Shown piece after piece: positions 2,663-56,489 of a stretch of 64,000 nucleotides of DNA. The stretch comes from Paludibacteraceae bacterium (lineage in GTDB: Bacteria > Bacteroidota > Bacteroidia > Bacteroidales > Paludibacteraceae), in the NCBI GenBank assembly GCA_045132415.1, contig JBGUSG010000003.1, positions 106,004 through 170,003 of the forward strand, in the 5' to 3' direction. The notes under the pieces were generated by a model. It worked only from the letters and a program-made list of their open reading frames with translations, did no database searches and was not told where the DNA came from. The translations under genes were made by a program, and so were the position numbers. Each line of letters opens with the position of its first letter. Position 1 is the stretch's first letter.

Positions 2663-2738
2663 TTGCGTATGTGCAGGCTTTGTCCTTACGTAGAGTGGCA
2701 TGGTTGTACCTTTGAGGGCACCTTATCCTCGAAGCTAC
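2663..2738 (-). repeat. intergenic module F1 (paralogue of F2 at 31268..31366)
   Basis: The reverse complement GTAGCTTCGAGG..GGTGCCCTCAAAGGTACAACCATGCCACTCTACGTAAGGACAAAGCCTGCACATACGCAA matches 31268-31366. It contains a TACCTTTG box on the + strand (2707-2714). Confidence 0.7.
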
Positions 2739-19310: not shown

Positions 19311-20921
19311 CTATTGTTGTAAGAAAAGATTTAGTTTTTCTTCGGGTGTAGAGGCAATTTTTAAAGCTTTTTCTAAATCTTTTGTATTTGAATCTCGCCC
19401 TTCATACATCACATCTATCACTGAAATAAATTGTTTTACACCCTCTTGATATTCATCTATAGTAGATGTTTTTACTTTATTGTAGAGATTATCTGCAACT
19501 TCTATATAAGCATTATACAAATATTTCTTCTTGTTGCATTTCGTGGTGCAATTTTCATTAGTGAATTTCGGCCTTTTGGATGAAGATACAGATAATCGTC
19601 CTTCGTTGTATGTTGAATTTGTATAACCCGATGATATGCAGTATATCTTATCCATATTCTTGTTTAGTTGTTCACATACTATTTCTAACTGTTCTATAGT
19701 CTTTGCTACATCCGTATCGTTTAGTCGTTGTAAATAGTCGCTCATTGTCTTAACTATTTCATCTGTTAAGTCTTCATCTCCTTTTCCGCCATAATCATAT
19801 TTATGAAACTCTAAACTATTAATAGTTTCTTTTATAACATTCAAATGCTTGTTAAACATACCAAATAGTAAACTATCTACGGCTTCATTTAAGACTACTG
19901 GATGCACAATGCCATCCATGGTATAGTAATTATCCATTGGTTTCAAATAGAAGCGTGCACGTTTGTATTTCTCAAGGATATTTTTGGCTTGCGAATATGC
20001 AGAGAAATAAGTGTCTTTGCGTTTACGAATAAGTTCTTGTTCTATTTTCTGCTTTTCTTGGACCTGTTCTTTCGCTCTTATGTAATGAGAGTGCAATGTA
20101 TCTTTATCGATCTGAGATAAATAGTAAGAGTTTACGATATTGCTTTCAATATATAGAATTTCATTTAGATTAGTACCTTGATACTGCATCATAAATTGAT
20201 ATTCAGGTATGTCTTTTAAATTATCATAAGGATTGTCCACATAGCGAGGCAAATTTACTATGTATTTTTCCATACCACCATTATTATCTGATGGGAAATC
20301 AAACATAATAAAGTATCCTTTTATTTCTTGCAAATTAGCATTTGGTGTATTTGCTGGCAAAATATTCTTATATCGTTTGACCTCGCTAGATTCACCAATA
20401 TATCGTAATTCTTCTTGTACAAGTTGTCTTGATCGTTCTGTAATAACTAGTTCAGAATCATCTATTAAGATACCATTTATAGCATGAGCACAGAAATTAT
20501 TTTCCACTCCCCAAGGTCCTTGATAAGTGACATTAATCTCTCCCGTCATATATCCATTGAACATATCAACACTAAAATTATCCAACATTTTATCAGAGAG
20601 AACCCAACGAACCTCTTTGTCAGTAGCCAAAGTAAAATATGCTTTATAAACATTCCAATCACAAGAATATGTAAGTCTTCCGTGTAGTAATCCATCTTTA
20701 TAATTACAATTTAATGTCTTATTTACTTTGTAATCATCTCTGTTCTCTTTCCAAACAATTGTATATTTTCCGTGTCTAATTTCTTCTCCTTGCTCGTTCA
20801 CATAATAACTATATGTGCGTGTTGTCGTCTGGTTAATCTTTTCGGTTTTTGTTTGGGTCGTTTGTGCGCTTGCAGAGATTGTTGCTAACGCTAATGCCAT
20901 TAGAATAAAAGTTCTTTTCAT
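19311..20921 (-). CDS. secreted hypothetical protein, 536 aa, AT-rich gene
   Basis: Signal peptide MKRTFILMALALATISASAQ (start moved to 20921). The N-terminal region has a MORN/YwqK-like flavour (GKYTIVWKEN...YKDGLLHGRLTY). The rest is helical and Lys/Glu/Asn-rich with no motif I recognise. Confidence 0.6.
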   Translation of the reverse strand: MKRTFILMALALATISASAQTTQTKTEKINQTTTRTYSYYVNEQGEEIRHGKYTIVWKENRDDYKVNKTLNCNYKDGLLHGRLTYSCDWNVYKAYFTLATDKEVRWVLSDKMLDNFSVDMFNGYMTGEINVTYQGPWGVENNFCAHAINGILIDDSELVITERSRQLVQEELRYIGESSEVKRYKNILPANTPNANLQEIKGYFIMFDFPSDNNGGMEKYIVNLPRYVDNPYDNLKDIPEYQFMMQYQGTNLNEILYIESNIVNSYYLSQIDKDTLHSHYIRAKEQVQEKQKIEQELIRKRKDTYFSAYSQAKNILEKYKRARFYLKPMDNYYTMDGIVHPVVLNEAVDSLLFGMFNKHLNVIKETINSLEFHKYDYGGKGDEDLTDEIVKTMSDYLQRLNDTDVAKTIEQLEIVCEQLNKNMDKIYCISSGYTNSTYNEGRLSVSSSKRPKFTNENCTTKCNKKKYLYNAYIEVADNLYNKVKTSTIDEYQEGVKQFISVIDVMYEGRDSNTKDLEKALKIASTPEEKLNLFLQQ

Positions 20922-20940
20922 GATTTTGATATTTAGATGG

Positions 20941-21492
20941 TTAATGAATTCCAATTAGTGGTTCGTATTTGCGAGCGAGTTCTGTCTCAAAAATCTCTTG
21001 TACAGGTATCACGTCGTATGGTAAAACTATGATGTGCAAGCGAAGTTGCAGATTCATTGCTTTTGCCCAATCATTGAGTTGCAAACCATGCGATGCTTGA
21101 TTTAGGTGATAGCCGAGATGTTGAATAACTCTGCCGACAATATGCTGCTGCACTTTGCCCACATAAAGCGTATTTTCTCTTGTTACTGCTTTTTTTAGTA
21201 CACGAGGTGTATATTTGGGCAATTGACTGACGGTTTGTTTGATTTGTTCTGCATCATAGGGCGACGTAATCTCCCAACGATACAAGCAAGGCAATTCATC
21301 TACTTCGGCTAATCGCTCAAACATCATTTTGAAAGGTGTTGAATAGCGGACATCTTCTAAGTTACGGTATTTGTCTTCGAAATCTTTGCTGTCAATTTCA
21401 AAAGACATTTCTTTTACAATACCGATCTCTGCGAGATGGTGAAAACGAGCACTGTACAAATCTGCGATTTCACGAACAAAATCTTTTTCCAT
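20941..21492 (-). CDS. hypothetical protein with GIY-YIG-like C-terminal half
   Basis: 183 aa. CLYRWEI...(~35 aa)...TLYVGKVQQHIVGRVIQHLG...ETELARKY resembles the GIY / YIG / Arg / Glu layout of GIY-YIG nucleases. The assignment is by eye only. Confidence 0.45.
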   Translation of the reverse strand: MEKDFVREIADLYSARFHHLAEIGIVKEMSFEIDSKDFEDKYRNLEDVRYSTPFKMMFERLAEVDELPCLYRWEITSPYDAEQIKQTVSQLPKYTPRVLKKAVTRENTLYVGKVQQHIVGRVIQHLGYHLNQASHGLQLNDWAKAMNLQLRLHIIVLPYDVIPVQEIFETELARKYEPLIGIH

Positions 21493-21514: not shown

Positions 21515-21748
21515 TTGATATATATACACGAAAAAGCGTGAACTTTCGTTCGCTTCAATTTGATTTTCTGAGGTTCTCGACTACCTTACTTATTCAAATC
21601 TACGCACGGAAAACTCACGCTGAAAGCATGAGCGTGCATAAACCGTACTTGAATAAGTAATGATTTCTTGAAAGTGTCGAGTTTTCAGAAAATCAAGTTT
21701 GGGCTTATAACGCTATATTAAATATGTCGGGCAACGGATCGTTGCGGA
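21515..21748 (-). ncRNA. E1: member of a structured non-coding element family (5' hairpin + ~145-nt extended hairpin + GC hairpin/T5)
   Basis: Its reverse complement aligns with 31950-32178 along the full length. Stems: TTGATTTTCTGA/TCAGAAAATCAA, CTCGAC/GTCGAG, TTACTTATTCAA/TTGAATAAGTAA. Terminator AGCGAACGAAAGTTCACGCTTTTT (minus sense) at 21531-21556. No conserved ORF. Confidence 0.5.
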
Positions 21749-21806
21749 TTAACTATAAACTATGAGTGATGAGTGATAAGTAAATTAGGGGGTTAGTATT
21801 GTTTGG

Positions 21807-22655
21807 TTATTTCAATTCTTTTGCTTTAGTATCTTCTATTGGATGGATGTAATCACTTGCTTTATCAGGTGAGATAATGCTATGCCCTAAGCCTTGCTCA
21901 ATATTCTCGCGAGCAACACGCGCAGCATTACCTCCTTGCTTCGCTACACGCTGATTAGCAGCCATACCTTTAGGGTTGTATTGCTTAGAGAATTCCGCCG
22001 TAGCTGCCTCTGCCAAAGTATTAAGAGCCAACTCCAGATTAGTCATATTATCACGCAAGTTTTCTTTCCTCAATCCTTTGAATCGCTTATATTCACGTGT
22101 TGTCTTACCACTCCATGCTTTCGTGATAATATCTGTTAGCATAGCAAATTCTTTGCCTTCTTGTATTCCTCCACGCTTCCACTCATCAGTCAACTCTTTG
22201 CGTGTTTCAATGGATTTTACACGTTGGTTAATCCAATTGTCAGAATATCCTAATCTACGATAATCAGCAATAGCTTGGTGGATACTGAGTTCTGGGTCTT
22301 GCAATTGATCTATACGCTGACGTCCTATTTCAGCAAGCCATAACTTAAATGGTTCAGCTTTTTTGGAAGGGATAGATTGTATCAAACGCAGAATTTGCTC
22401 AGTATCAGCCACATCTGTAAGGTATTTCTTTCCATCTGCAGCGGGCATTTTCAGTTGACTACAATTTGTAGCCAACTCACTACCTTCCTTTTTTAGGCGA
22501 GTCTTAAGAACGCTCCAGTACTTTCGAGCATTAGGCGTATCTGTCAGTACTTGCACTACATCAACGACCGAGAAGAAATACTTCTCCTGTTCGTCATCCC
22601 AAATCACGCGTATTTGGCGATCTTCGAATAACTGTATAGCATTATATTCTTGCAT
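21807..22655 (-). CDS. Bro-N domain protein, DinD-like (DNA-damage-inducible protein D family)
   Basis: 282 aa. The N-terminus FEDRQIRVIWDDEQEKYFFSVVDVVQVLTD...ARKYW is a Bro-N domain, and the overall length and order match E. coli DinD-type proteins. Confidence 0.7.
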   Translation of the reverse strand: MQEYNAIQLFEDRQIRVIWDDEQEKYFFSVVDVVQVLTDTPNARKYWSVLKTRLKKEGSELATNCSQLKMPAADGKKYLTDVADTEQILRLIQSIPSKKAEPFKLWLAEIGRQRIDQLQDPELSIHQAIADYRRLGYSDNWINQRVKSIETRKELTDEWKRGGIQEGKEFAMLTDIITKAWSGKTTREYKRFKGLRKENLRDNMTNLELALNTLAEAATAEFSKQYNPKGMAANQRVAKQGGNAARVARENIEQGLGHSIISPDKASDYIHPIEDTKAKELK

Positions 22656-29751: not shown

Positions 29752-29823
29752 GATGGTTTGTTGCAGATGCCAATCCATTAAAAAAGAGAAACGATAACGA
29801 AACACCTTCATTATCGCCTCCAG

Positions 29824-30212
29824 TGGAGATAGCGGGATTCGAACCCGCGTCCAAACAAGGAACCAATATGCTTTCTACACGCTTATCTTGGCCTTAATTT
29901 TCGAGCAATGGCAAGACCCAAGCCACCAACCATTGCCTTATCTGCTGTTATCTCATTCTTGCATCGCAGCCTGCAACAACCAGTCCCGATATTTCCGCAC
30001 CGCTTAACCCATTCAGCCTCTGGACGTTGGCTTGGAGCGATGTCTCGGTTCAGCACCTTGTGCCGAAACTAGGCGAATCTACTATACTTCGATTACGCAG
30101 CGAGAGCTACAGTATTGTTGCCAGTTATAATGGCGAACCCGATTAACGAGCGGTGTTCATGCTCGGCGTGCTTACATACCTGTTCTACCTGCTGTCAAAA
30201 CCAAATATCCCC
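29824..30212 (-). ncRNA. ssrA: tmRNA (SsrA)
   Basis: 5' GGGGATATTTGGTTTTGACAGCAGG... and 3' ...CGCGGGTTCGAATCCCGCTATCTCCA form the tRNA-like domain. Predicted tag frame: GGC AAC AAT ACT GTA GCT CTC GCT GCG TAA = (G)NNTVALAA. A -7 box TACTTTTG lies ~25 nt upstream (minus). Confidence 0.85.
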
Positions 30213-31267: not shown

Positions 31268-31366
31268 GTAGCTTCGAGGTGGGCGAGTACCTTATGGTAC
31301 GAGGTCGGTGCCCTCGAAGGTACAACCTTGCCACTCTACGTTAGGACGAAGTCCGCACATACGCAA
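31268..31366 (+). repeat. intergenic module F2 (paralogue of F1)
   Basis: GTAGCTTCGAGGTGGGCGAGTACCTTATGGTACGAGGTCGGTGCCCTCGAAGGTACAACCTTGCCACTCTACGTTAGGACGAAGTCCGCACATACGCAA. It contains the nested hairpins CTTCGAGG/CCTCGAAG and GTACC/GGTAC. Confidence 0.7.
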
Positions 31367-31430
31367 GCAGGTGAGTATATTTTTACCCAAAACTTGCCTA
31401 TTGTTTGCCCTTTATATGCCACCTACATAC

Positions 31431-31485
31431 ATTGGAACCTCATTGGAACCTGATTGGAACCTGATTGGAACCTCATTGGAACCTC
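31431..31485. repeat. tandem array T3: 5 x 11 bp ATTGGAACCT(C/G)
   Basis: ATTGGAACCTC ATTGGAACCTG ATTGGAACCTG ATTGGAACCTC ATTGGAACCTC, with an exact 11-bp period. Confidence 0.9.
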
Positions 31486-31556
31486 GTCGAATAATTACCG
31501 ATACTTCAAGCCATAATCACCGAGAGATCATCCGTATAAAAATTACCAATCAAAAC

Positions 31557-31787
31557 CTATTTCCGTTTGGGATTTTTGGGAAACCAACCACGTGTGCCCG
31601 TGTCGTACTGAAATTGCTGTCCCCAAACATGGTTCAAGATATCCTCGCGCGAGCATATTTGGTCAGCGTTCTGCGCCAAGTATTCGAGCAACCGAAACTC
31701 AATATTGGTCAGTCGCACAACCTGCGCACGACGCATCACACAATGCGCAGAACTGTCTATGACTATGTCAGCAAAACGATATTTCAT
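31557..31787 (-). CDS. orphan OmpR/PhoB-type winged-helix DNA-binding domain, apparently C-terminally truncated
   Basis: MKYRFADIVIDSSAHCVMRRAQVVRLTNIEFRLLEYLAQNADQICSREDILNHVWGQQFQYDTGT matches a Trans_reg_C domain up to the wing, then ends in unrelated RGWFPKNPKRK. Own -7 box TACTTTTG (minus, ~31810-31817). The start is moved from 31892. Confidence 0.5.
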   Translation of the reverse strand: MKYRFADIVIDSSAHCVMRRAQVVRLTNIEFRLLEYLAQNADQICSREDILNHVWGQQFQYDTGTRGWFPKNPKRK

Positions 31788-31881
31788 CAAAGATGGGTGA
31801 TTTAACGGGACAAAAGTACTGTGTTTTTTTTGAATATGCAAGTTTTGTACGTATTTCCTTGCGTATGTGCATTTTTTGTTG

Positions 31882-31889
31882 TACCTTTG
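31882..31889 (+). promoter_or_regulatory. -7 box TACCTTTG driving E2
   Basis: GCGTATGTGCATTTTTTGTTGTACCTTTGCAACG, the same cassette as at recJ, lpxC and rpsO. Confidence 0.65.
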
Positions 31890-31949
31890 CAACGTGAAAC
31901 AAACACCAAAAGATTTTTATGAATAAACAGATAGAATCATAACCAAACT

Positions 31950-32178
31950 GCAACGCATAGCCGTTGCCCGACATATTTAATATAGCGTTATAAGCCAAAC
32001 TTGAGTTTTTGAAACTTCGACACTTTTAAAAACTTATTATTTGTTCAAGTCACGGTTTATGCACGCTCACGTTATCAGCGTGAGTTTTCTGTGCGTAAAT
32101 TTGAACAAATAAGGTAGTCGAAGACCTCAAAAACTCAAATGAAGCGAACGAAAGTTCACGCTTTTTGTATGTATATAT
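31950..32178 (+). ncRNA. E2: second copy of the structured element family
   Basis: P1 GCAACG-CATAGC-CGTTGC. Stems TTGAGTTTTTGA/TCAAAAACTCAA, CTTCGAC/GTCGAAG and TTATTTGTTCAA/TTGAACAAATAA. Apical CTCACG-TTATCAG-CGTGAG. Terminator AGCGAACGAAAGTTCACGCTTTTT at 32143-32166. Confidence 0.55.
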
Positions 32179-32374
32179 GAAATACGTAAACAATAGATAC
32201 GTAGTATAAAGATATCATCATGATCTAAACAAAAAAAGATTCTGTACAAAAAAAGTATAAATTATTGATAAACAATTGTTGTAGTCATCCTTTTCTGTAC
32301 AAAAGCTAAAAAGTTTTTATATATCAAAAAAAAGCAGTACCTTTGCAAGAAGTTTCAGAAAACAAGATTCGCTT

Positions 32375-33841
32375 ATGAAAAGAAATCTAATTGTATTATT
32401 GGCATTGTTGATATTCGTGACCTACGTGCCCATTTGGGCGCAGTCTATCACATTAACCAAAGAGTTTCAGACGATGCCGAATGTAAAAGCCTCAGAGGTT
32501 TATCGCAACCAGTTTGGCAATTACGAGATTGTGGGTGCAGATGATCCGTTCCCATATGTGGTTATTCGTATAGGTTTGGATGGCAACAGCAAGGATATAG
32601 AGGATGCTAAGGAGCGATTGAATATTTCGCTGGGGCGAATGGTGAAAGTGGAGAGTGTGTTTAAAGAAGCGAGAAATGAGTTGCTATTTCTCATTCCTTC
32701 GCGTGCTCGCTATATTGAAATGCAATGCAATGGCGAGTGTTTGCCACAAATGATGTTTGATAGTTTGGTACATCTGCAATCTAATACCGTATTTTATGGT
32801 CGCGTGCACTACGTTATGCAAGACGATATGCGCGATCCAAACCAGTTAAAGACATATCCGTTTGCTCTGACCGTAGAACCTGCTGAGGCAAAAGTAGAGA
32901 TGCGTTCGGGGTTTATGACGGAGGAGTGGAAATTGGAGAATGGTACTGCGCAGCAATTGTTGATAGAAGGAACATACTACTATACCATTACGGCAGAGGA
33001 TTATAAGACAGCCGAAGGGTCTTTTGTGGTGGATTCGTTGCACAAAGACACCGCGATAGCTTTGGTGCCCAAATTTGGTTGGTTGAGCGTGAAGAGTGAT
33101 AGTGCAGACTTGTCAGGTTTGTCGCTTGAGGTGGAGTATTTGAAGCAGAAACAAGTGGTAGAATTGCCATTGGAGAATGAGAAATGTGGATTGGGGCAGT
33201 ATGTGCTGACCATAAAGAAACCGAAATGCCATACTTGGAAGAAGAAAGTGGTGGTGCATGCAGGAGAACATGTGGAGGTGTATCCTGCGCCCCTGAAAAA
33301 GGAGTATCGTCATAATACTTTTGTGTTGGCTGAGGGTGGATATGCGATGAATCCTGCATGGAGCGTAGGTTTGATGGCAGGACAAGTGTATGGTGAGGTG
33401 ACGCGAGTAATGGGAATAGGTTGGTATGTGAAAGGTCGTTCTAACTTCCAAACAACAAAAGCGATAGAGGGACTGCATATCAATAACGGAGGATTGATTG
33501 GAATAACAAGTCCGTTGATGCCAGCGTACACGGGAAGAACGCGTTTTACGGAATGGAATCTGAATGCAGGTGTAGTATTGAACTTCCTGAACAAGAAAGC
33601 GCTTAATCTCCACAAGAACAGTATGTTTGGTCTGTATGCGGGTTTGGGATATGGCCAATATACTCGTTATTGGGAGATTGTTGATGGGCGGTGGTTTGAA
33701 TATGCGCCAACATCTGTTCAAGGATTGAGTGTAGGCGGTGGTGTGATAGGAAGTATAAAAGGACTGACAATCAGTGCAGGTGTGAACACCATTATGGCAA
33801 AATACATGGAGATTGAAATGGGATTGGGATGGACATTTTAA
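32375..33841 (+). CDS. secreted hypothetical protein (PEGA-like middle region, beta-barrel-like C-terminus)
   Basis: 488 aa. Signal peptide MKRNLIVLLALLIFVTYVPIWAQ, GTYYYTITAEDYKTAEGSFVV (PEGA-like) and a Gly/aromatic-rich C-terminal third. Own -7 box at 32338-32345. Confidence 0.6.
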   Translation: MKRNLIVLLALLIFVTYVPIWAQSITLTKEFQTMPNVKASEVYRNQFGNYEIVGADDPFPYVVIRIGLDGNSKDIEDAKERLNISLGRMVKVESVFKEARNELLFLIPSRARYIEMQCNGECLPQMMFDSLVHLQSNTVFYGRVHYVMQDDMRDPNQLKTYPFALTVEPAEAKVEMRSGFMTEEWKLENGTAQQLLIEGTYYYTITAEDYKTAEGSFVVDSLHKDTAIALVPKFGWLSVKSDSADLSGLSLEVEYLKQKQVVELPLENEKCGLGQYVLTIKKPKCHTWKKKVVVHAGEHVEVYPAPLKKEYRHNTFVLAEGGYAMNPAWSVGLMAGQVYGEVTRVMGIGWYVKGRSNFQTTKAIEGLHINNGGLIGITSPLMPAYTGRTRFTEWNLNAGVVLNFLNKKALNLHKNSMFGLYAGLGYGQYTRYWEIVDGRWFEYAPTSVQGLSVGGGVIGSIKGLTISAGVNTIMAKYMEIEMGLGWTF

Positions 33842-35520: not shown

Positions 35521-36048
35521 ATGATCAAACATGACGGCATAATAATCGCATTGAATGAGGACGGCACCGCCCTCGTGCGCATCGTGCAGACAAGTGCATG
35601 TGCAGCATGCAAAGCCAAAGCCATGTGCGCCAGCGCAGAGAGCGCCGAGAAGGAGATGACGGTTGTTCTTCTGAACCAAGAACCAAGAACCAAGGAGAAA
35701 TCGTTCGAGCGCAAGCAAGATAAGAACCAAGACGCATCAGCAACGACAGATCAGACGAAGGTAACAAGTCTTGGCTCTTTGCTCCTGGCTCCAGAAGCCT
35801 ACAAAGTAGGCGATACTGTAGAAGTGATGGTGCAGCAGAAGATGGGATGGAAAGCCGTAGTACTCGCCTACTTGCTGCCATTCTTTGTGATGTTGGCAGT
35901 GATGTTCATAGGCAATGCAATCTGGGCAGTACGCGAGGAGATTCTCGGTACAGTAGCACTCTGCGCTATGGCACTCTACTACCTCATACTCGGCATGTTC
36001 AAAGACAAACTGCAAAAAGAGTTTAGCTTTACCGCTCGCAAGAAGTGA
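35521..36048 (+). CDS. rseC: RseC/SoxR-reducing-system family protein carrying a ~40-aa internal insertion
   Basis: N-terminus IVQTSACAACKAKAMCASAESAEKEMTVV and C-terminus AYKVGDTVEVMV + 2 TM helices are RseC-like and sit in the usual position before rnfB. Residues ~LLNQEPRTKEKSFERKQDKNQDASATTDQTKVTSLGSLLLAP are encoded by repeat B1. Confidence 0.75.
   Translation: MIKHDGIIIALNEDGTALVRIVQTSACAACKAKAMCASAESAEKEMTVVLLNQEPRTKEKSFERKQDKNQDASATTDQTKVTSLGSLLLAPEAYKVGDTVEVMVQQKMGWKAVVLAYLLPFFVMLAVMFIGNAIWAVREEILGTVALCAMALYYLILGMFKDKLQKEFSFTARKK
35672..35792 (+). repeat. repeat B1 (GAACCAAG-word element) inside the rseC reading frame
   Basis: GAACCAA x3 - GAGAAATCGTTCGAGCGCAAGCAAGATAA - GAACCAAGAC - core GCATCAGCAACGACAGATCAGACGAAGGTAACAA - GTCTTGGCTCT TTGCTCC TGGCTCC. 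The core is homologous to B2 (38532..38627). Confidence 0.75.
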
Positions 36049-36051
36049 CAA

Positions 36052-36216
36052 GACCGCCCTGCGGGCTGTTAGAAGTTAGATCGCCACATGGTGGCTGTTA
36101 GACTCCAGAAATCTAACAGTAAGCAAAGCGGAAAAATCGTTCGAGCGAATGCGAGATAAGAACGATCTAACAATGAAATGGTCTAACAATGACAGTGGTC
36201 TAACAGCGAAGCGGTC
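36052..36216. repeat. palindromic element A1 (GTTAGA/TCTAAC family), rseC|rnfB junction
   Basis: The left arm has CTGTTAGA-type words, each followed by a small GC hairpin (GCCC-TGC-GGGC, GCCAC-ATG-GTGGC). The right arm has 4 x (G)TCTAACA words. The termini GACCGC...GCGGTC are complementary. Confidence 0.85.
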
Positions 36217-38641: not shown

Positions 38642-39637
38642 ATGAAACAATTTATAGTATCTCCCGCACCACACTTCCATAGCGGTGATAGCGTGCGGAA
38701 AAATATGCTGTTGGTGATTATCGCCCTGTTGCCAGCTTACGCAGTCAGCGTATGGCAATTTGGCTGGGGTGCATTGATCACCACCGCCATCAGCGTGGCA
38801 GCATGCGTGCTGTTTGAGTGGCTGATTGCGAAATATCTATTGAAACAAAAATCTACTATCGGCGACCTCTCTGCTGTATTGACTGGTCTGCTGTTGGCAT
38901 TCAACTTGCCAAGCAACTTACCTTGGTGGATTGTTATCATCGGTGCCTTGGTGGCTATCGGCGTAGCGAAAATGAGCTTCGGTGGCTTGGGACAAAACAT
39001 CTTCAACCCTGCTCTTGTGGGTCGTGTGTTCCTGCTCATCTCTTTCCCTGCTCAGATGACCACATGGCCAGTGCCACAAGGTTTTGCGACTTCTTATGTG
39101 GATGCTGCTACAGGTGCAACTCCTCTTGCAGCCATGAAAGTGGCTCTCACGGGCAGCGATAGCATGATGAGCGCTGTGCCAGAGATGTGGGATATCCTCA
39201 TCGGTAAGATGGGCGGTAGTCTTGGCGAGGTGAGCGCATTGCTCTTGCTCGCAGGCGGTATCTTCCTCATTGCTACCCGCGTGATTACATGGCATATCCC
39301 AGTAAGTATCATGGCTACTGTGGCATTGTTTGCTGCGGTGACTGGTTGGGCAGGTCTATTGCCAGAGAGCGTGGCTACAGGCGAGTATGTGATGCTCAGC
39401 CTCTGCACCGGTGGTATGATGCTGGGTGCATGGTTCATGGCTACTGACTACGTGACCTCACCTATGAGCAACTGCGGTAAACTGATCTTCGGTGTGGGTA
39501 TTGGTGTGATTGTGATGGTGATTCGTACTTGGGGTGCTTACCCAGAAGGTATGTCATTCGCTATCCTTATCATGAACGCCTGCGCACCATTGTTGAACCT
39601 CATTCGTCCAAAACGCTTTGGCGAGAAAAAGAAATAA
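38642..39637 (+). CDS. rnfD: Rnf complex subunit D
   Basis: 331 aa polytopic membrane protein with the SPAPH N-terminus and the NqrB/RnfD FMN-attachment region (SGATPL-like DAATGATPLA). Confidence 0.9.
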   Translation: MKQFIVSPAPHFHSGDSVRKNMLLVIIALLPAYAVSVWQFGWGALITTAISVAACVLFEWLIAKYLLKQKSTIGDLSAVLTGLLLAFNLPSNLPWWIVIIGALVAIGVAKMSFGGLGQNIFNPALVGRVFLLISFPAQMTTWPVPQGFATSYVDAATGATPLAAMKVALTGSDSMMSAVPEMWDILIGKMGGSLGEVSALLLLAGGIFLIATRVITWHIPVSIMATVALFAAVTGWAGLLPESVATGEYVMLSLCTGGMMLGAWFMATDYVTSPMSNCGKLIFGVGIGVIVMVIRTWGAYPEGMSFAILIMNACAPLLNLIRPKRFGEKKK

Positions 39638-39641
39638 AAAT

Positions 39642-39756
39642 GACCGCCCTGCGGGCTGTTAGAAGCTAGACCGGCTTCGCCTGTTAGACCTAAGAAATCT
39701 AACATCTAACAGCAAAGCGATCTAACAATGAAATGGTCTAACAACGCAGTGGTCTT
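39642..39756. repeat. palindromic element A2, rnfD|rnfG junction
   Basis: GACCGCCCTGCGGGCTGTTAGAAGCTAGACCGGCTTCGCCTGTTAGACC...TCTAACATCTAACAGCAAAGCGATCTAACAATGAAATGGTCTAACAACGCAGTGGTC. Confidence 0.85.
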
Positions 39757-39770
39757 AAAACAAAAGTATT

Positions 39771-40454: not shown

Positions 40455-41041
40455 AAAATAAAGCATTAAACACCGTTCTTAACGGTATCTTGCGCGAGAA
40501 TCCAGTATTCGCTCTCGTGCTCGGTATGTGTCCTACCTTGGCGACTACCACTTCTGCTATCAATGGTATGTCCATGGGACTCGCTACTACCTTCGTGCTT
40601 ATCTGCTCGAATGTGGTGATTTCACTCTTGAAGAATTTGATTCCTGATAAAGTACGTATTCCTGCGTTTATCGTGGTGATTGCTACTTTCGTGACCATGG
40701 TACAACTCTTGATGCAAGCTTATCTGCCTGCCATTTATGAGGTGCTTGGTTTGTTTATCCCACTGATTGTGGTGAACTGTATCGTACTCGGTCGTGCCGA
40801 GGCTTTTGCTGCTAAGAACACCGTTGGCTTGTCTGCTTTGGACGGTCTGGGTATGGGTCTTGGTTTTACATTGGCATTGACTTTGATTGGTGCAGTGCGT
40901 GAGTTGTTAGGTACAGGTAGTTTGTTTGGCATGAACCTCTATAGCGAGACCTATGGTATGTTGATTTTCGTGCTCGCTCCTGGTGCGTTCATCGTATTGG
41001 GTTATTTGATGGCATTGGTACAAAAACTGCTTAAAAAATAA
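40451..41041 (+). CDS. rnfE: Rnf complex subunit E
   Basis: 196 aa. NPVFALVLGMCPTLA... typical RnfE/NqrD. Its start overlaps the rnfG stop. Confidence 0.9.
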   Translation: MKNKALNTVLNGILRENPVFALVLGMCPTLATTTSAINGMSMGLATTFVLICSNVVISLLKNLIPDKVRIPAFIVVIATFVTMVQLLMQAYLPAIYEVLGLFIPLIVVNCIVLGRAEAFAAKNTVGLSALDGLGMGLGFTLALTLIGAVRELLGTGSLFGMNLYSETYGMLIFVLAPGAFIVLGYLMALVQKLLKK

Positions 41042-41045
41042 AATA

Positions 41046-41190
41046 GACTGCCCTGCGGGCTGTTAGAAGTCAGACCGGCTTCGCCTGTTAGACCGCCGCG
41101 AGGCGGCTGTTAGACCAAGAAATCTAACATCTAACAGTGAGCAAAGCGAACGATCTAACAACGTAGTGGTCTAATAGTGAAACGATCTAA
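41046..41190. repeat. palindromic element A3, rnfE|rnfA junction
   Basis: GACTGCCCTGCGGGCTGTTAGAAGTCAGACCGGCTTCGCCTGTTAGACCGCCGCGAGGCGGCTGTTAGACC...TCTAACATCTAACAG...GATCTAACAACGTAGTGGTCTAATAGTGAAACGATCTAA. Confidence 0.85.
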
Positions 41191-44653: not shown

Positions 44654-44790
44654 GACCGCCTTCGGCTGTTAGACCACTTCGTTGTTAGACCGCCCTTCGG
44701 GCTGAGAGAAGTTAGACTTCTATAATCTAACAGCGACAAAGTCGCGGTCTAACAGTGCAACGGTCTAATATCTAATAGCAAAGCGGTCTA
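44654..44790. repeat. palindromic element A4, udk|chrA junction
   Basis: GACCGCCTTCGGCTGTTAGACCACTTCGTTGTTAGACCGCCCTTCGGGCTGAGAGAAGTTAGAC...TCTAACAGCGACAAAGTCGCGGTCTAACAGTGCAACGGTCTAATATCTAATAGCAAAGCGGTCTAATA. It starts 1 nt after the udk stop and ends 2 nt before the chrA ATG. Confidence 0.85.
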
Positions 44791-56429: not shown

Positions 56430-56434
56430 ATTTA

Positions 56435-56489
56435 TTAGATATTAGACCGCTGCGCTGTAAGACCGCCTGCGGCTGTTAGATGTTAGACA
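56435..56489. repeat. half element A5 (GTTAGA arm only), between pepD and the C69 dipeptidase gene
   Basis: TTAGATATTAGACCGCTGCGCTGTAAGACCGCCTGCGGCTGTTAGATGTTAGAC. Confidence 0.7.

Follow-up and report, generated by a model that had tools for sequence, protein, structure and literature searches.

A multi-copy structured RNA family of gut Paludibacteraceae and the layout of its copy E2

We analyzed a 64,000-nucleotide (nt) stretch of DNA from a Paludibacteraceae bacterium (assembly GCA_045132415.1, contig JBGUSG010000003.1, positions 106,004-170,003 of the forward strand), referred to below as the window, and focused on E2, a structured element of about 230 nt which lies on the plus strand ahead of a gene for a 488-amino-acid (aa) protein. 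From 5' to 3', the element consists of a small hairpin (P0), a near-invariant stretch (module A), a rod-like hairpin of about 140 nt (H), a terminator-like hairpin (T2) and a tail. A second copy, E1, was found on the minus strand of the window. The coordinates of both copies and of the features around them are collected in Table 1.

Promoters in the window were Bacteroidota-like, with the pattern TTTG-N17-21-TAnnTTTG observed 16 times compared with 1.7 expected. The -7 box of E2, TACCTTTG, was located within a 31-mer, GCGTATGTGCATTTTTTGTTGTACCTTTGCA (31861-31891), which occurred six times in the window when up to three mismatches were allowed (0 expected); other cassettes of this type preceded lpxC (2885), recJ (7180), leuS (17244, minus strand) and rpsO (60965). 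The E2 promoter reads as a housekeeping-type Bacteroidota promoter, and the transcription start site is predicted at about 31895-31900. The leader between this promoter and P0 was absent from E1 and the other copies, and was identical in L123 and L125 (L numbers denote loci compared with the window). The sole ATG open reading frame (ORF) of the predicted transcript, ATGAATAAACAGATAGAATCATAA, comprised only seven codons, and no plus-strand ORF of at least 30 aa was found between 31897 and 32170. The sense strand of E2 folded with -75.8 kcal/mol (z = -7.2), and none of 200 shuffled sequences was equally stable; the antisense strand gave a z-score of -4.3. E2 is a real and non-coding element.

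An earlier sequence-only reading of this DNA had taken E2 for a stand-alone small RNA (sRNA) gene, and all the features that it described at the locus were found again here at the coordinates given: a -7 box within the cassette common to recJ, lpxC and rpsO (and also leuS), a hairpin AGCGAAC-GAAA-GTTCACGCT followed by a T-run, a separate -7 box ahead of the ATG at 32375, a structured body and a lack of coding capacity. It had also named the hairpin an intrinsic terminator. Both hairpin and U-run are indeed present, but the hairpin is weak and did not appear in the plus-strand list of a generic terminator scan.

Table 1. Positions of E2, E1 and associated features in the window
Feature	Position	Strand	Description
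E2 promoter cassette	31858-31891	+	-33 TTG at 31859-31861; -7 box at 31882-31889
E2 5' leader	31897-31949	+	Locus-specific, outside the repeat; holds the 7-codon ORF (31919-31942)
P0	31950-31967	+	6-bp hairpin GCAACG-CATAGC-CGTTGC
Module A	31968-31999	+	Near-invariant single-stranded stretch of about 30 nt, CCGACATATTTAATATAGCGTTATAAGCCAAA
H (P1-P5)	32000-32139	+	Long rod-like hairpin, from fold prediction and covariation
T2	32143-32166	+	AGCGAAC-GAAA-GTT(CA)CGCT hairpin with GNRA loop, then TTTTT
Conserved tail	32167-32177	+	GTATGTATATA; family consensus TRTNTATATA; follows T2 in most long-type copies
Second promoter	32308-32347	+	-7 box at 32338-32345; serves the downstream coding sequence; atypical for the family
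E2 downstream gene	32375-33841	+	488-aa protein, signal-peptide-like N-terminus, no Pfam domain
Left-hand recombination block	31441-31999	.	Tandem repeat, OmpR-type fragment, promoter, leader, P0 and module A
E1	21531-21745	-	Second copy (P0, module A, long hairpin, T2), about 90% identical to E2
U1 spacer	21746-21806	-	Conserved, stop-codon-rich (…CCTAATTTACTTATCACTCATCACTCATAGTTTATAGTTAATCC); joins the stop codon of the upstream gene to P0
Gene upstream of E1	21807-22655	-	Bro-N/DinD-like; match to PADLOC defence candidate PDC-S13 (4.5e-131)
Gene downstream of E1	20941-21492	-	183 aa; ATG 38 nt after T2

To place E2 among other sequences, species-representative genomes were scanned with a 20-mer from its most conserved stretch, which revealed at least 100 loci, essentially all of them in metagenome-assembled genomes (MAGs) of Paludibacteraceae/Bacteroidales from animal guts; several MAGs contained three to six copies each among the matches listed. 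An independent scan of metagenomes, anchored on T2, revealed 109 loci. More than 200 further copies beyond E1 and E2 are thereby known from Paludibacteraceae/Bacteroidales gut MAGs and metagenomes. On the other hand, no copy was found in phage, plasmid and viral-contig collections, and the covariance models of Rfam 15, applied to 31700-32400 with gathering and permissive thresholds, gave nothing above 17 bits (all E-values at least 0.69). As judged from these comparisons, E2 is one copy of a multi-copy, previously uncurated structured RNA family of gut Paludibacteraceae and related Bacteroidales.

Conservation was distributed unevenly along the element. All six pairs of P0 were changed on both sides across the family (e.g. 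GCACCG/CGGTGC, GCATCG/CGATGC, GGCGCA/TGCGCC). Module A was invariant among close copies, with 34 nt identical between E1 and E2, and its universal core, AGCGTTATAAGCC (31984-31996), was present in every copy found via the T2 anchor. Within H, the middles of P1 and P3 were hypervariable and the internal loops and the apex were conserved. T2 forms 7 base pairs (bp) with a 2-nt bulge (-7.1 kcal/mol) and is followed by U5. Its sequence was nearly invariant in the 65 copies derived via module A, in which GTT>GCG variants break the inner pairs, and its U-run was variable across the wider family. It appears that the sequence of T2, rather than its pairing, is what is conserved, and T2 looks like a weak, leaky terminator-like element. 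A strong terminator (-17.5 kcal/mol) took the place of H and T2 in 24 of 102 copies, which form the short variant, and five copies were cut off after the 5' arm of P1 and still adjoined a promoter-less gene. In about 700 kb of family-locus sequence, every H was accompanied by module A. P0 was preceded by a promoter or by a stop-codon-rich spacer, of which a few alternatives exist (U1-U4).

The secondary structure was supported by covariation. In 65 close copies, RNAalifold predicted 52 pairs, 18 of which had changes on both sides. With a curated structure for 64 diverse copies, 91.4% of the cells were paired, compared with 26-40% when the partners were slid by one to three columns; double changes were observed in 28 pairs, and doubly changed cells numbered 334, a value that none of 500 shuffles reached (102±11). 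Compensatory changes in the long hairpin were visible even between E1 and E2. With covariation of this strength, a new RNA family can be defined. In addition, the apical stem P5 varied almost only through G-U pairs (e.g. GU:38/GC:26, UA:38/UG:26, AU:46/GU:18, CG:30/UG:28). Read from the other strand, these changes would give A·C mismatches, and selection therefore acts on the RNA (or single strand) in the sense of the flanking genes.

The 5' strand of the second internal loop offers the 5' arm of P1 another partner, and their pairing would give an alternative local hairpin, P1alt (13 perfect bp in E2; -7.5 to -8.4 kcal/mol). The covariation suggests moderate support for it: 81.6% of the cells were paired compared with 22-63% after sliding, nine of the 12 pairs were doubly changed, and doubly changed cells numbered 33 compared with 13.5±3.3. 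Possible pairings between module A and T2 (UUGC/GCGA by RNAalifold, AGCGU/ACGCU by eye) consisted solely of invariant bases, and a correlation of the 3' arm of P1 with the base after the U-run, sought by eye, was not found. P1alt likewise showed no connection with the formation of T2.

The position of the copies relative to genes was highly constrained. In the genome set, the next gene was on the strand of the element in all 89 cases and the previous gene in 81 of 89; in the T2-anchored metagenome set, the next gene was in sense in 96 of 98. By comparison, the baseline co-orientation of adjacent genes in the same loci was 77%, and both genes were in sense in 52 of the 57 pairs spanning an element. 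For the hairpin type, the gap between T2 and the next ATG had a median of 71 nt (usual range 30-110 nt), and it contained no TAnnTTTG box in 54 of 59 copies of the genome set. The gap was at most 150 nt in 84 of 96 copies of the T2-anchored set, 79 of which had no -7 box there. Counting every -7 box from the element to the following gene, just 5/59 and 7/96 copies of the two sets had one. Of 19 copies of the strong-terminator type, 18 had a -7 box in the gap to the next gene, and the median gap was 440 nt. Sense orientation, short gaps and promoter-less next genes are the signature of a leader or intercistronic RNA rather than of an independent gene.

Promoters directly upstream of the element were also scarce among close relatives. 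A -7 box within 150 nt upstream was present in only three of 66 hairpin-type copies (E2, L073 and L008), and in L073 the order was promoter, element, 44 nt and gene. In the T2-anchored set, 32 of 80 copies had such a box, clustered at about 45, 61-67 and 76-78 nt from the core. The sequence-only reading had held that E2 is an sRNA gene and not part of a 5' untranslated region (UTR). For an independent sRNA gene, the promoter-to-terminator unit would be expected to be kept in homologues whatever their neighbors. These figures speak against such a gene, as the copies almost always form part of the transcription unit to which the next gene belongs and mostly lack a promoter.

With regard to gene content, the upstream genes coded for small cytosolic accessory proteins, either DUF3990-like, RhuM-like, AbiEii-like and YhcG-like by sequence resemblance or Bro-N as found by Pfam scanning. 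Signal-peptide-like N-termini were observed in at least 87 of 131 distinct downstream proteins. Most of the downstream proteins had no Pfam domain, and the BspA-type leucine-rich repeat was the sole recurrent family (11 of 101). The 488-aa protein downstream of E2 was not homologous to a family of about 480 aa found behind other copies. E1 has no promoter cassette and lies between two co-directional genes. The 183-aa gene and a 547-aa gene downstream of it (19311-21492, minus strand) had no match in Pfam, NCBIfam or PADLOC, and different genes occupied this position in other strains. The U1 spacer of E1 was common to many copies and absent from E2.

Two other conserved sequences were noticed in the regions that follow the element. 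In L005, L011, L084, L088, L089, L092, L093 and L097, the gap after T2 contained a conserved motif, ACGGAGTGTGCCGAAAATCCGACAAAGAGTAGGCA, which lay about 20 nt ahead of the ATG of several signal-peptide genes. Through CGGA/TCCG and TGCC/GGCA pairing, this motif might fold into an H-type pseudoknot; it does not occur in the window. A conserved leader of about 300 nt (…CCACGCCTTGGGATTATGTCT…AGACATAATAAAGGCG…; 4020-4330 of L104, with similar sequences in L030, L072 and L090) had no Rfam match and was found behind a strong-terminator and promoter module, ahead of a PEGA-domain gene.

Comparison of loci showed that copies with the same sequence on one side of module A may differ completely on the other. 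L123 (GCA_045119855.1) was 100% identical to the left-hand block of E2 (559 nt), and switched exactly after module A (31999) to a strong terminator, a promoter and a galE-like gene. L216 had a YhcG-like gene and U1 on its left side, unlike E2, and from module A on it contained, by inspection, an E2-type hairpin, T2, a 208-nt spacer with the second promoter of E2 and an orthologue of the 488-aa gene. Homology between L104 and the E1 locus ended at 21703, which is the end of module A, and L124 was 94.6% identical to the window over 4.4 kb and lacked E2. E2-type hairpins with 98-100% identity were found between differing flanks in the window, L005, L109, L201 and L216; the one in L109 (98% identical) stood behind Bro-N. 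In L103, Bro-N and a whole element lay between unrelated genes. An identical Bro-N protein was present in 190 blocks of a public collection; the element came next, and the gene sets beyond it were of at least six kinds. Public contigs repeatedly ended inside the element, and those carrying the 488-aa gene broke inside E2 at 32137. The junction between the E2 promoter and the element is hence a recent recombination product within the invariant module, and module A, the longest perfectly shared stretch, is a frequent crossover point.

These exchanges might go beyond homologous recombination between repeats. Module A might be the crossover at which dispersed copies are swapped throughout the genome, among them inverted pairs (E1 and E2, 10 kb apart, form one), so that promoters or upstream genes are rejoined to different promoter-less surface-protein genes with a hairpin leader. 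If so, it would generate population-level variation in which surface proteins are expressed. The left identity and right difference of L123, the reciprocal case of L216 and the Bro-N gene with its at least six gene sets are consistent with this idea and also with occasional homologous recombination, and we regard such a system as quite unlikely.

Some additional features were observed around the recombinant block. Its left edge (31441) coincided with a tandem repeat of about 11 nt (CATTGGAACCT/GATTGGAACCT, about five units, 31430-31486). A truncated OmpR-type winged-helix fragment (76 aa, Trans_reg_C; 31557-31787, minus strand) was apparently frameshifted after ...YDTGTR, and an identical protein was present in three different genomic contexts in other assemblies. 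A 60-nt repeat at 2663-2722 (plus strand) and 31307-31366 (minus strand; 90% complementary) was also present in L124-L126 and had the appearance of a promoter cassette with an insert in its middle part (TTGCGTATGTGCA...GGTTGTACCTTTGAGGGCACC).

How might the element act? We favor, with about an even chance of being right, that the family is a cis-acting structured 5'-leader or intercistronic RNA. The element would be transcribed in sense, either from the upstream gene or from a promoter 45-80 nt ahead, and the next gene, which mostly codes for an exported or surface protein and has no promoter of its own, would be reachable only by transcription through the element. The fold, either the long rod or P1alt, might then set the amount or the stability of the transcript that reaches this gene, with transcription ending in part at T2, the long duplex being processed, or both. 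In the case of E2, homologous recombination in module A fused the element to a strong housekeeping-type promoter. E2 is probably expressed as an RNA of about 270 nt ending at T2, with some read-through. Thus, the sequence-only prediction of a stand-alone transcript of this length is plausible in so far as the layout of promoter, hairpin and U-run would yield a discrete RNA, but the layout itself is an exception created by recombination, and is best read as an accident rather than as the design of the family.

Several observations weigh against a cis-acting role. Many copies are related by recent recombination, and the context counts given above are not fully independent. Position in sense ahead of a promoter-less gene is true of the family and not of E2, whose downstream gene has its own promoter (window repeat family D3) 170 nt after T2, so that a cis role is not required there. 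The downstream genes are functionally heterogeneous, and hence no common signal or ligand can be proposed. The promoter, leader, P0 and module A of L123, together with the strong terminator, form a self-contained unit of about 150 nt. T2 is kept far more strictly in sequence than a terminator needs, which hints at a sequence-specific partner that a cis-acting leader does not explain. Finally, the family membership, the RNA-level structure, the strand, the context statistics and the recombinant junction were observed, and it is from these that transcription, its start site, termination, read-through, a mechanism of attenuation or processing and any ligand or factor have to be inferred.

A role of this kind would have parallels. 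From leader or intercistronic positions, the EAR RNA of the Bacillales eps operon and JUMPstart/ops with RfaH control how far transcription elongates into surface-structure operons, and so do the opsX sites, with pause hairpins and UpxY, in Bacteroides capsule leaders (PMC11685472). Like these systems, the element is conserved, is predicted to be transcribed, lies immediately ahead of genes whose products are exported or at the surface, and may sit between genes of one operon; it also offers a hairpin in the nascent RNA and a terminator-like feature that has to be passed. Unlike them, it is much larger (about 230 nt), occurs in many copies per genome before unrelated single genes, and has no linked NusG paralogue or dedicated factor, and any pause or antitermination activity would be putative. 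If a cis-acting role is correct, one structured RNA would stand before many variable surface-protein genes in abundant uncultured Bacteroidales of animal guts, and would give the cell surface repertoire a common point of control or processing.

Among the other explanations, it is unlikely that the element is a stand-alone trans-acting sRNA, with module A as a seed or protein-binding site for unlinked mRNAs. In this view, E2 would be a stable small RNA, as would copies that are cut out of 3' UTRs or transcribed from a promoter of their own. E2 does share a consensus promoter, a structured body with no ORF and a stable fold, a conserved single-stranded stretch and a hairpin with U-run with sRNA genes and 3'UTR-derived sRNAs, including GibS of Bacteroides. 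Module A is nearly invariant and single-stranded in the fold, the L123 unit is sRNA-like, and the 24 short copies, in which module A lies just before a strong terminator at gene 3' ends, resemble 3'UTR-derived sRNAs. However, unlike sRNAs such as GibS, the copies are tied in orientation to the downstream gene (89/89 and 96/98) with no promoters in between, and only 3/66 close copies have a promoter of their own, which at E2 was acquired through a recombination junction. Several copies per genome with hypervariable stems would also be unusual for a seed-type sRNA, no Rfam sRNA family matched, and sites complementary to module A were not in excess in the window (one ten-mer compared with six expected). 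Another possibility is a selfish or neutral dispersed repeat (such as a miniature inverted-repeat transposable element (MITE) or an ERIC- or Correia-like repeat) or a recombination module, which is tolerated in transcribed spacers and has spread or been homogenised by gene conversion with no dedicated regulatory role. ERIC/IRU in Enterobacteria, Correia/nemis in Neisseria and BOX in S. pneumoniae are dispersed intergenic repeats that are co-transcribed and form long RNA hairpins. The element is similarly multi-copy, 100-250 nt in length and an imperfect long palindrome in transcribed intergenic spacers, is modular like BOX, with its modules in mosaic combinations, and, like all three, is tied to recombination and assembly breaks and to proposed effects on mRNA processing, stability and termination. 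Near-identical E2-type hairpins between different flanks on both sides, and the identical Bro-N and element ahead of at least six gene sets, would also fit. Nevertheless, we consider this very unlikely. ERIC and MITE elements occur in both orientations, whereas the element is strictly sense to the flanking genes and has asymmetric ends (P0 and module A at the 5' end, T2 at the 3' end). Its saturated but compensated stems, invariant loops and module A, and strand-specific wobble point to long-term purifying selection on the sense RNA and not to recent transposition. It also has no sequence similarity to the three families and no match in the phage, plasmid and viral collections; no target-site duplication was noticed, although no formal search for duplications was made, and no clean empty site was found among the relatives compared.

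The last explanation that we weighed, and a most improbable one, is that the element contains an outward-facing promoter, in which a -7-like box in the 3' half of H (TAAATTTG/TAGATTTG, 32098-32105) drives the downstream genes. This would account for the missing downstream promoters and for the independence from upstream context, and the majority apical variant does contain an exact TAnnTTTG at a fixed position, next to an invariant TTCAAG/TTTGAA at the top of the otherwise hypervariable P3. On the other hand, the box was inexact in about one-third of the copies and had no TTTG at -33, T2 would fall inside the resulting 5' UTR, and a promoter-less gene still follows directly in the five copies that end after the P1 5' arm. 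Moreover, covariation of both arms requires that the whole hairpin be transcribed from upstream.

The element belongs to none of the ERIC/Correia/BOX, EAR, ops/RfaH and opsX/UpxY systems, and is a new, well-supported structured RNA family, for which the mechanism given here is a proposal. Several other identities were considered and rejected. The downstream genes, with no common pathway or transport function, did not fit a metabolite riboswitch. No model match was obtained for 6S RNA, T-box, retron msr/msd, ωRNA/bridge RNA or the hairpin ribozyme, all of them suggested by the rod shape, the downstream genes were heterogeneous, and no reverse transcriptase, TnpB or recombinase was found nearby. 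Integron attC sites (such as the Vibrio cholerae repeats) resemble the element in several ways: a long imperfect hairpin, structure kept more than stem sequence, strand asymmetry, and a location at variable-gene junctions, with small accessory ORFs on the 5' side and promoter-less ORFs on the 3' side. Unlike attC sites, however, the element forms no cassette arrays and has no evident GTTRRRY/RYYYAAC core sites, its folded strand is the coding strand, and P0, module A and T2 are unrelated to attC. In an nhmmer search of all loci (about 700 kb), the elements were solitary except for one pair within 1.1 kb in L100, and no element was present upstream of the Bro-N cassette in L103.

These results also have a practical side. 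The element is a marker of recombination junctions and a point at which assemblies break, and both are relevant to the reconstruction of MAGs and to the study of accessory-gene exchange. For annotation, a promoter, a structure and a hairpin with U-run at a single locus mimicked an sRNA gene, and it was the family context that revealed a recombinant exception.

Elsewhere in the window, a tmRNA gene (Rfam RF00023, 143.9 bits) was found at 29821-30212 on the minus strand, 1.7 kb from E2, together with four tRNA genes at other positions. Families of short repeats with many TCTAACA / GGTCTAACAATGA units and a GACCGCCCTGCGGGCTGTTAGAAG hairpin (D7, D8 and I14) were located between genes at 36039-36192, 39629-39763, 41033-41180, 44742-44777 and 56433-56466. 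In general, the intergenic regions of this genome appear to be assembled from reused modules, including near-identical 33-nt promoter cassettes.

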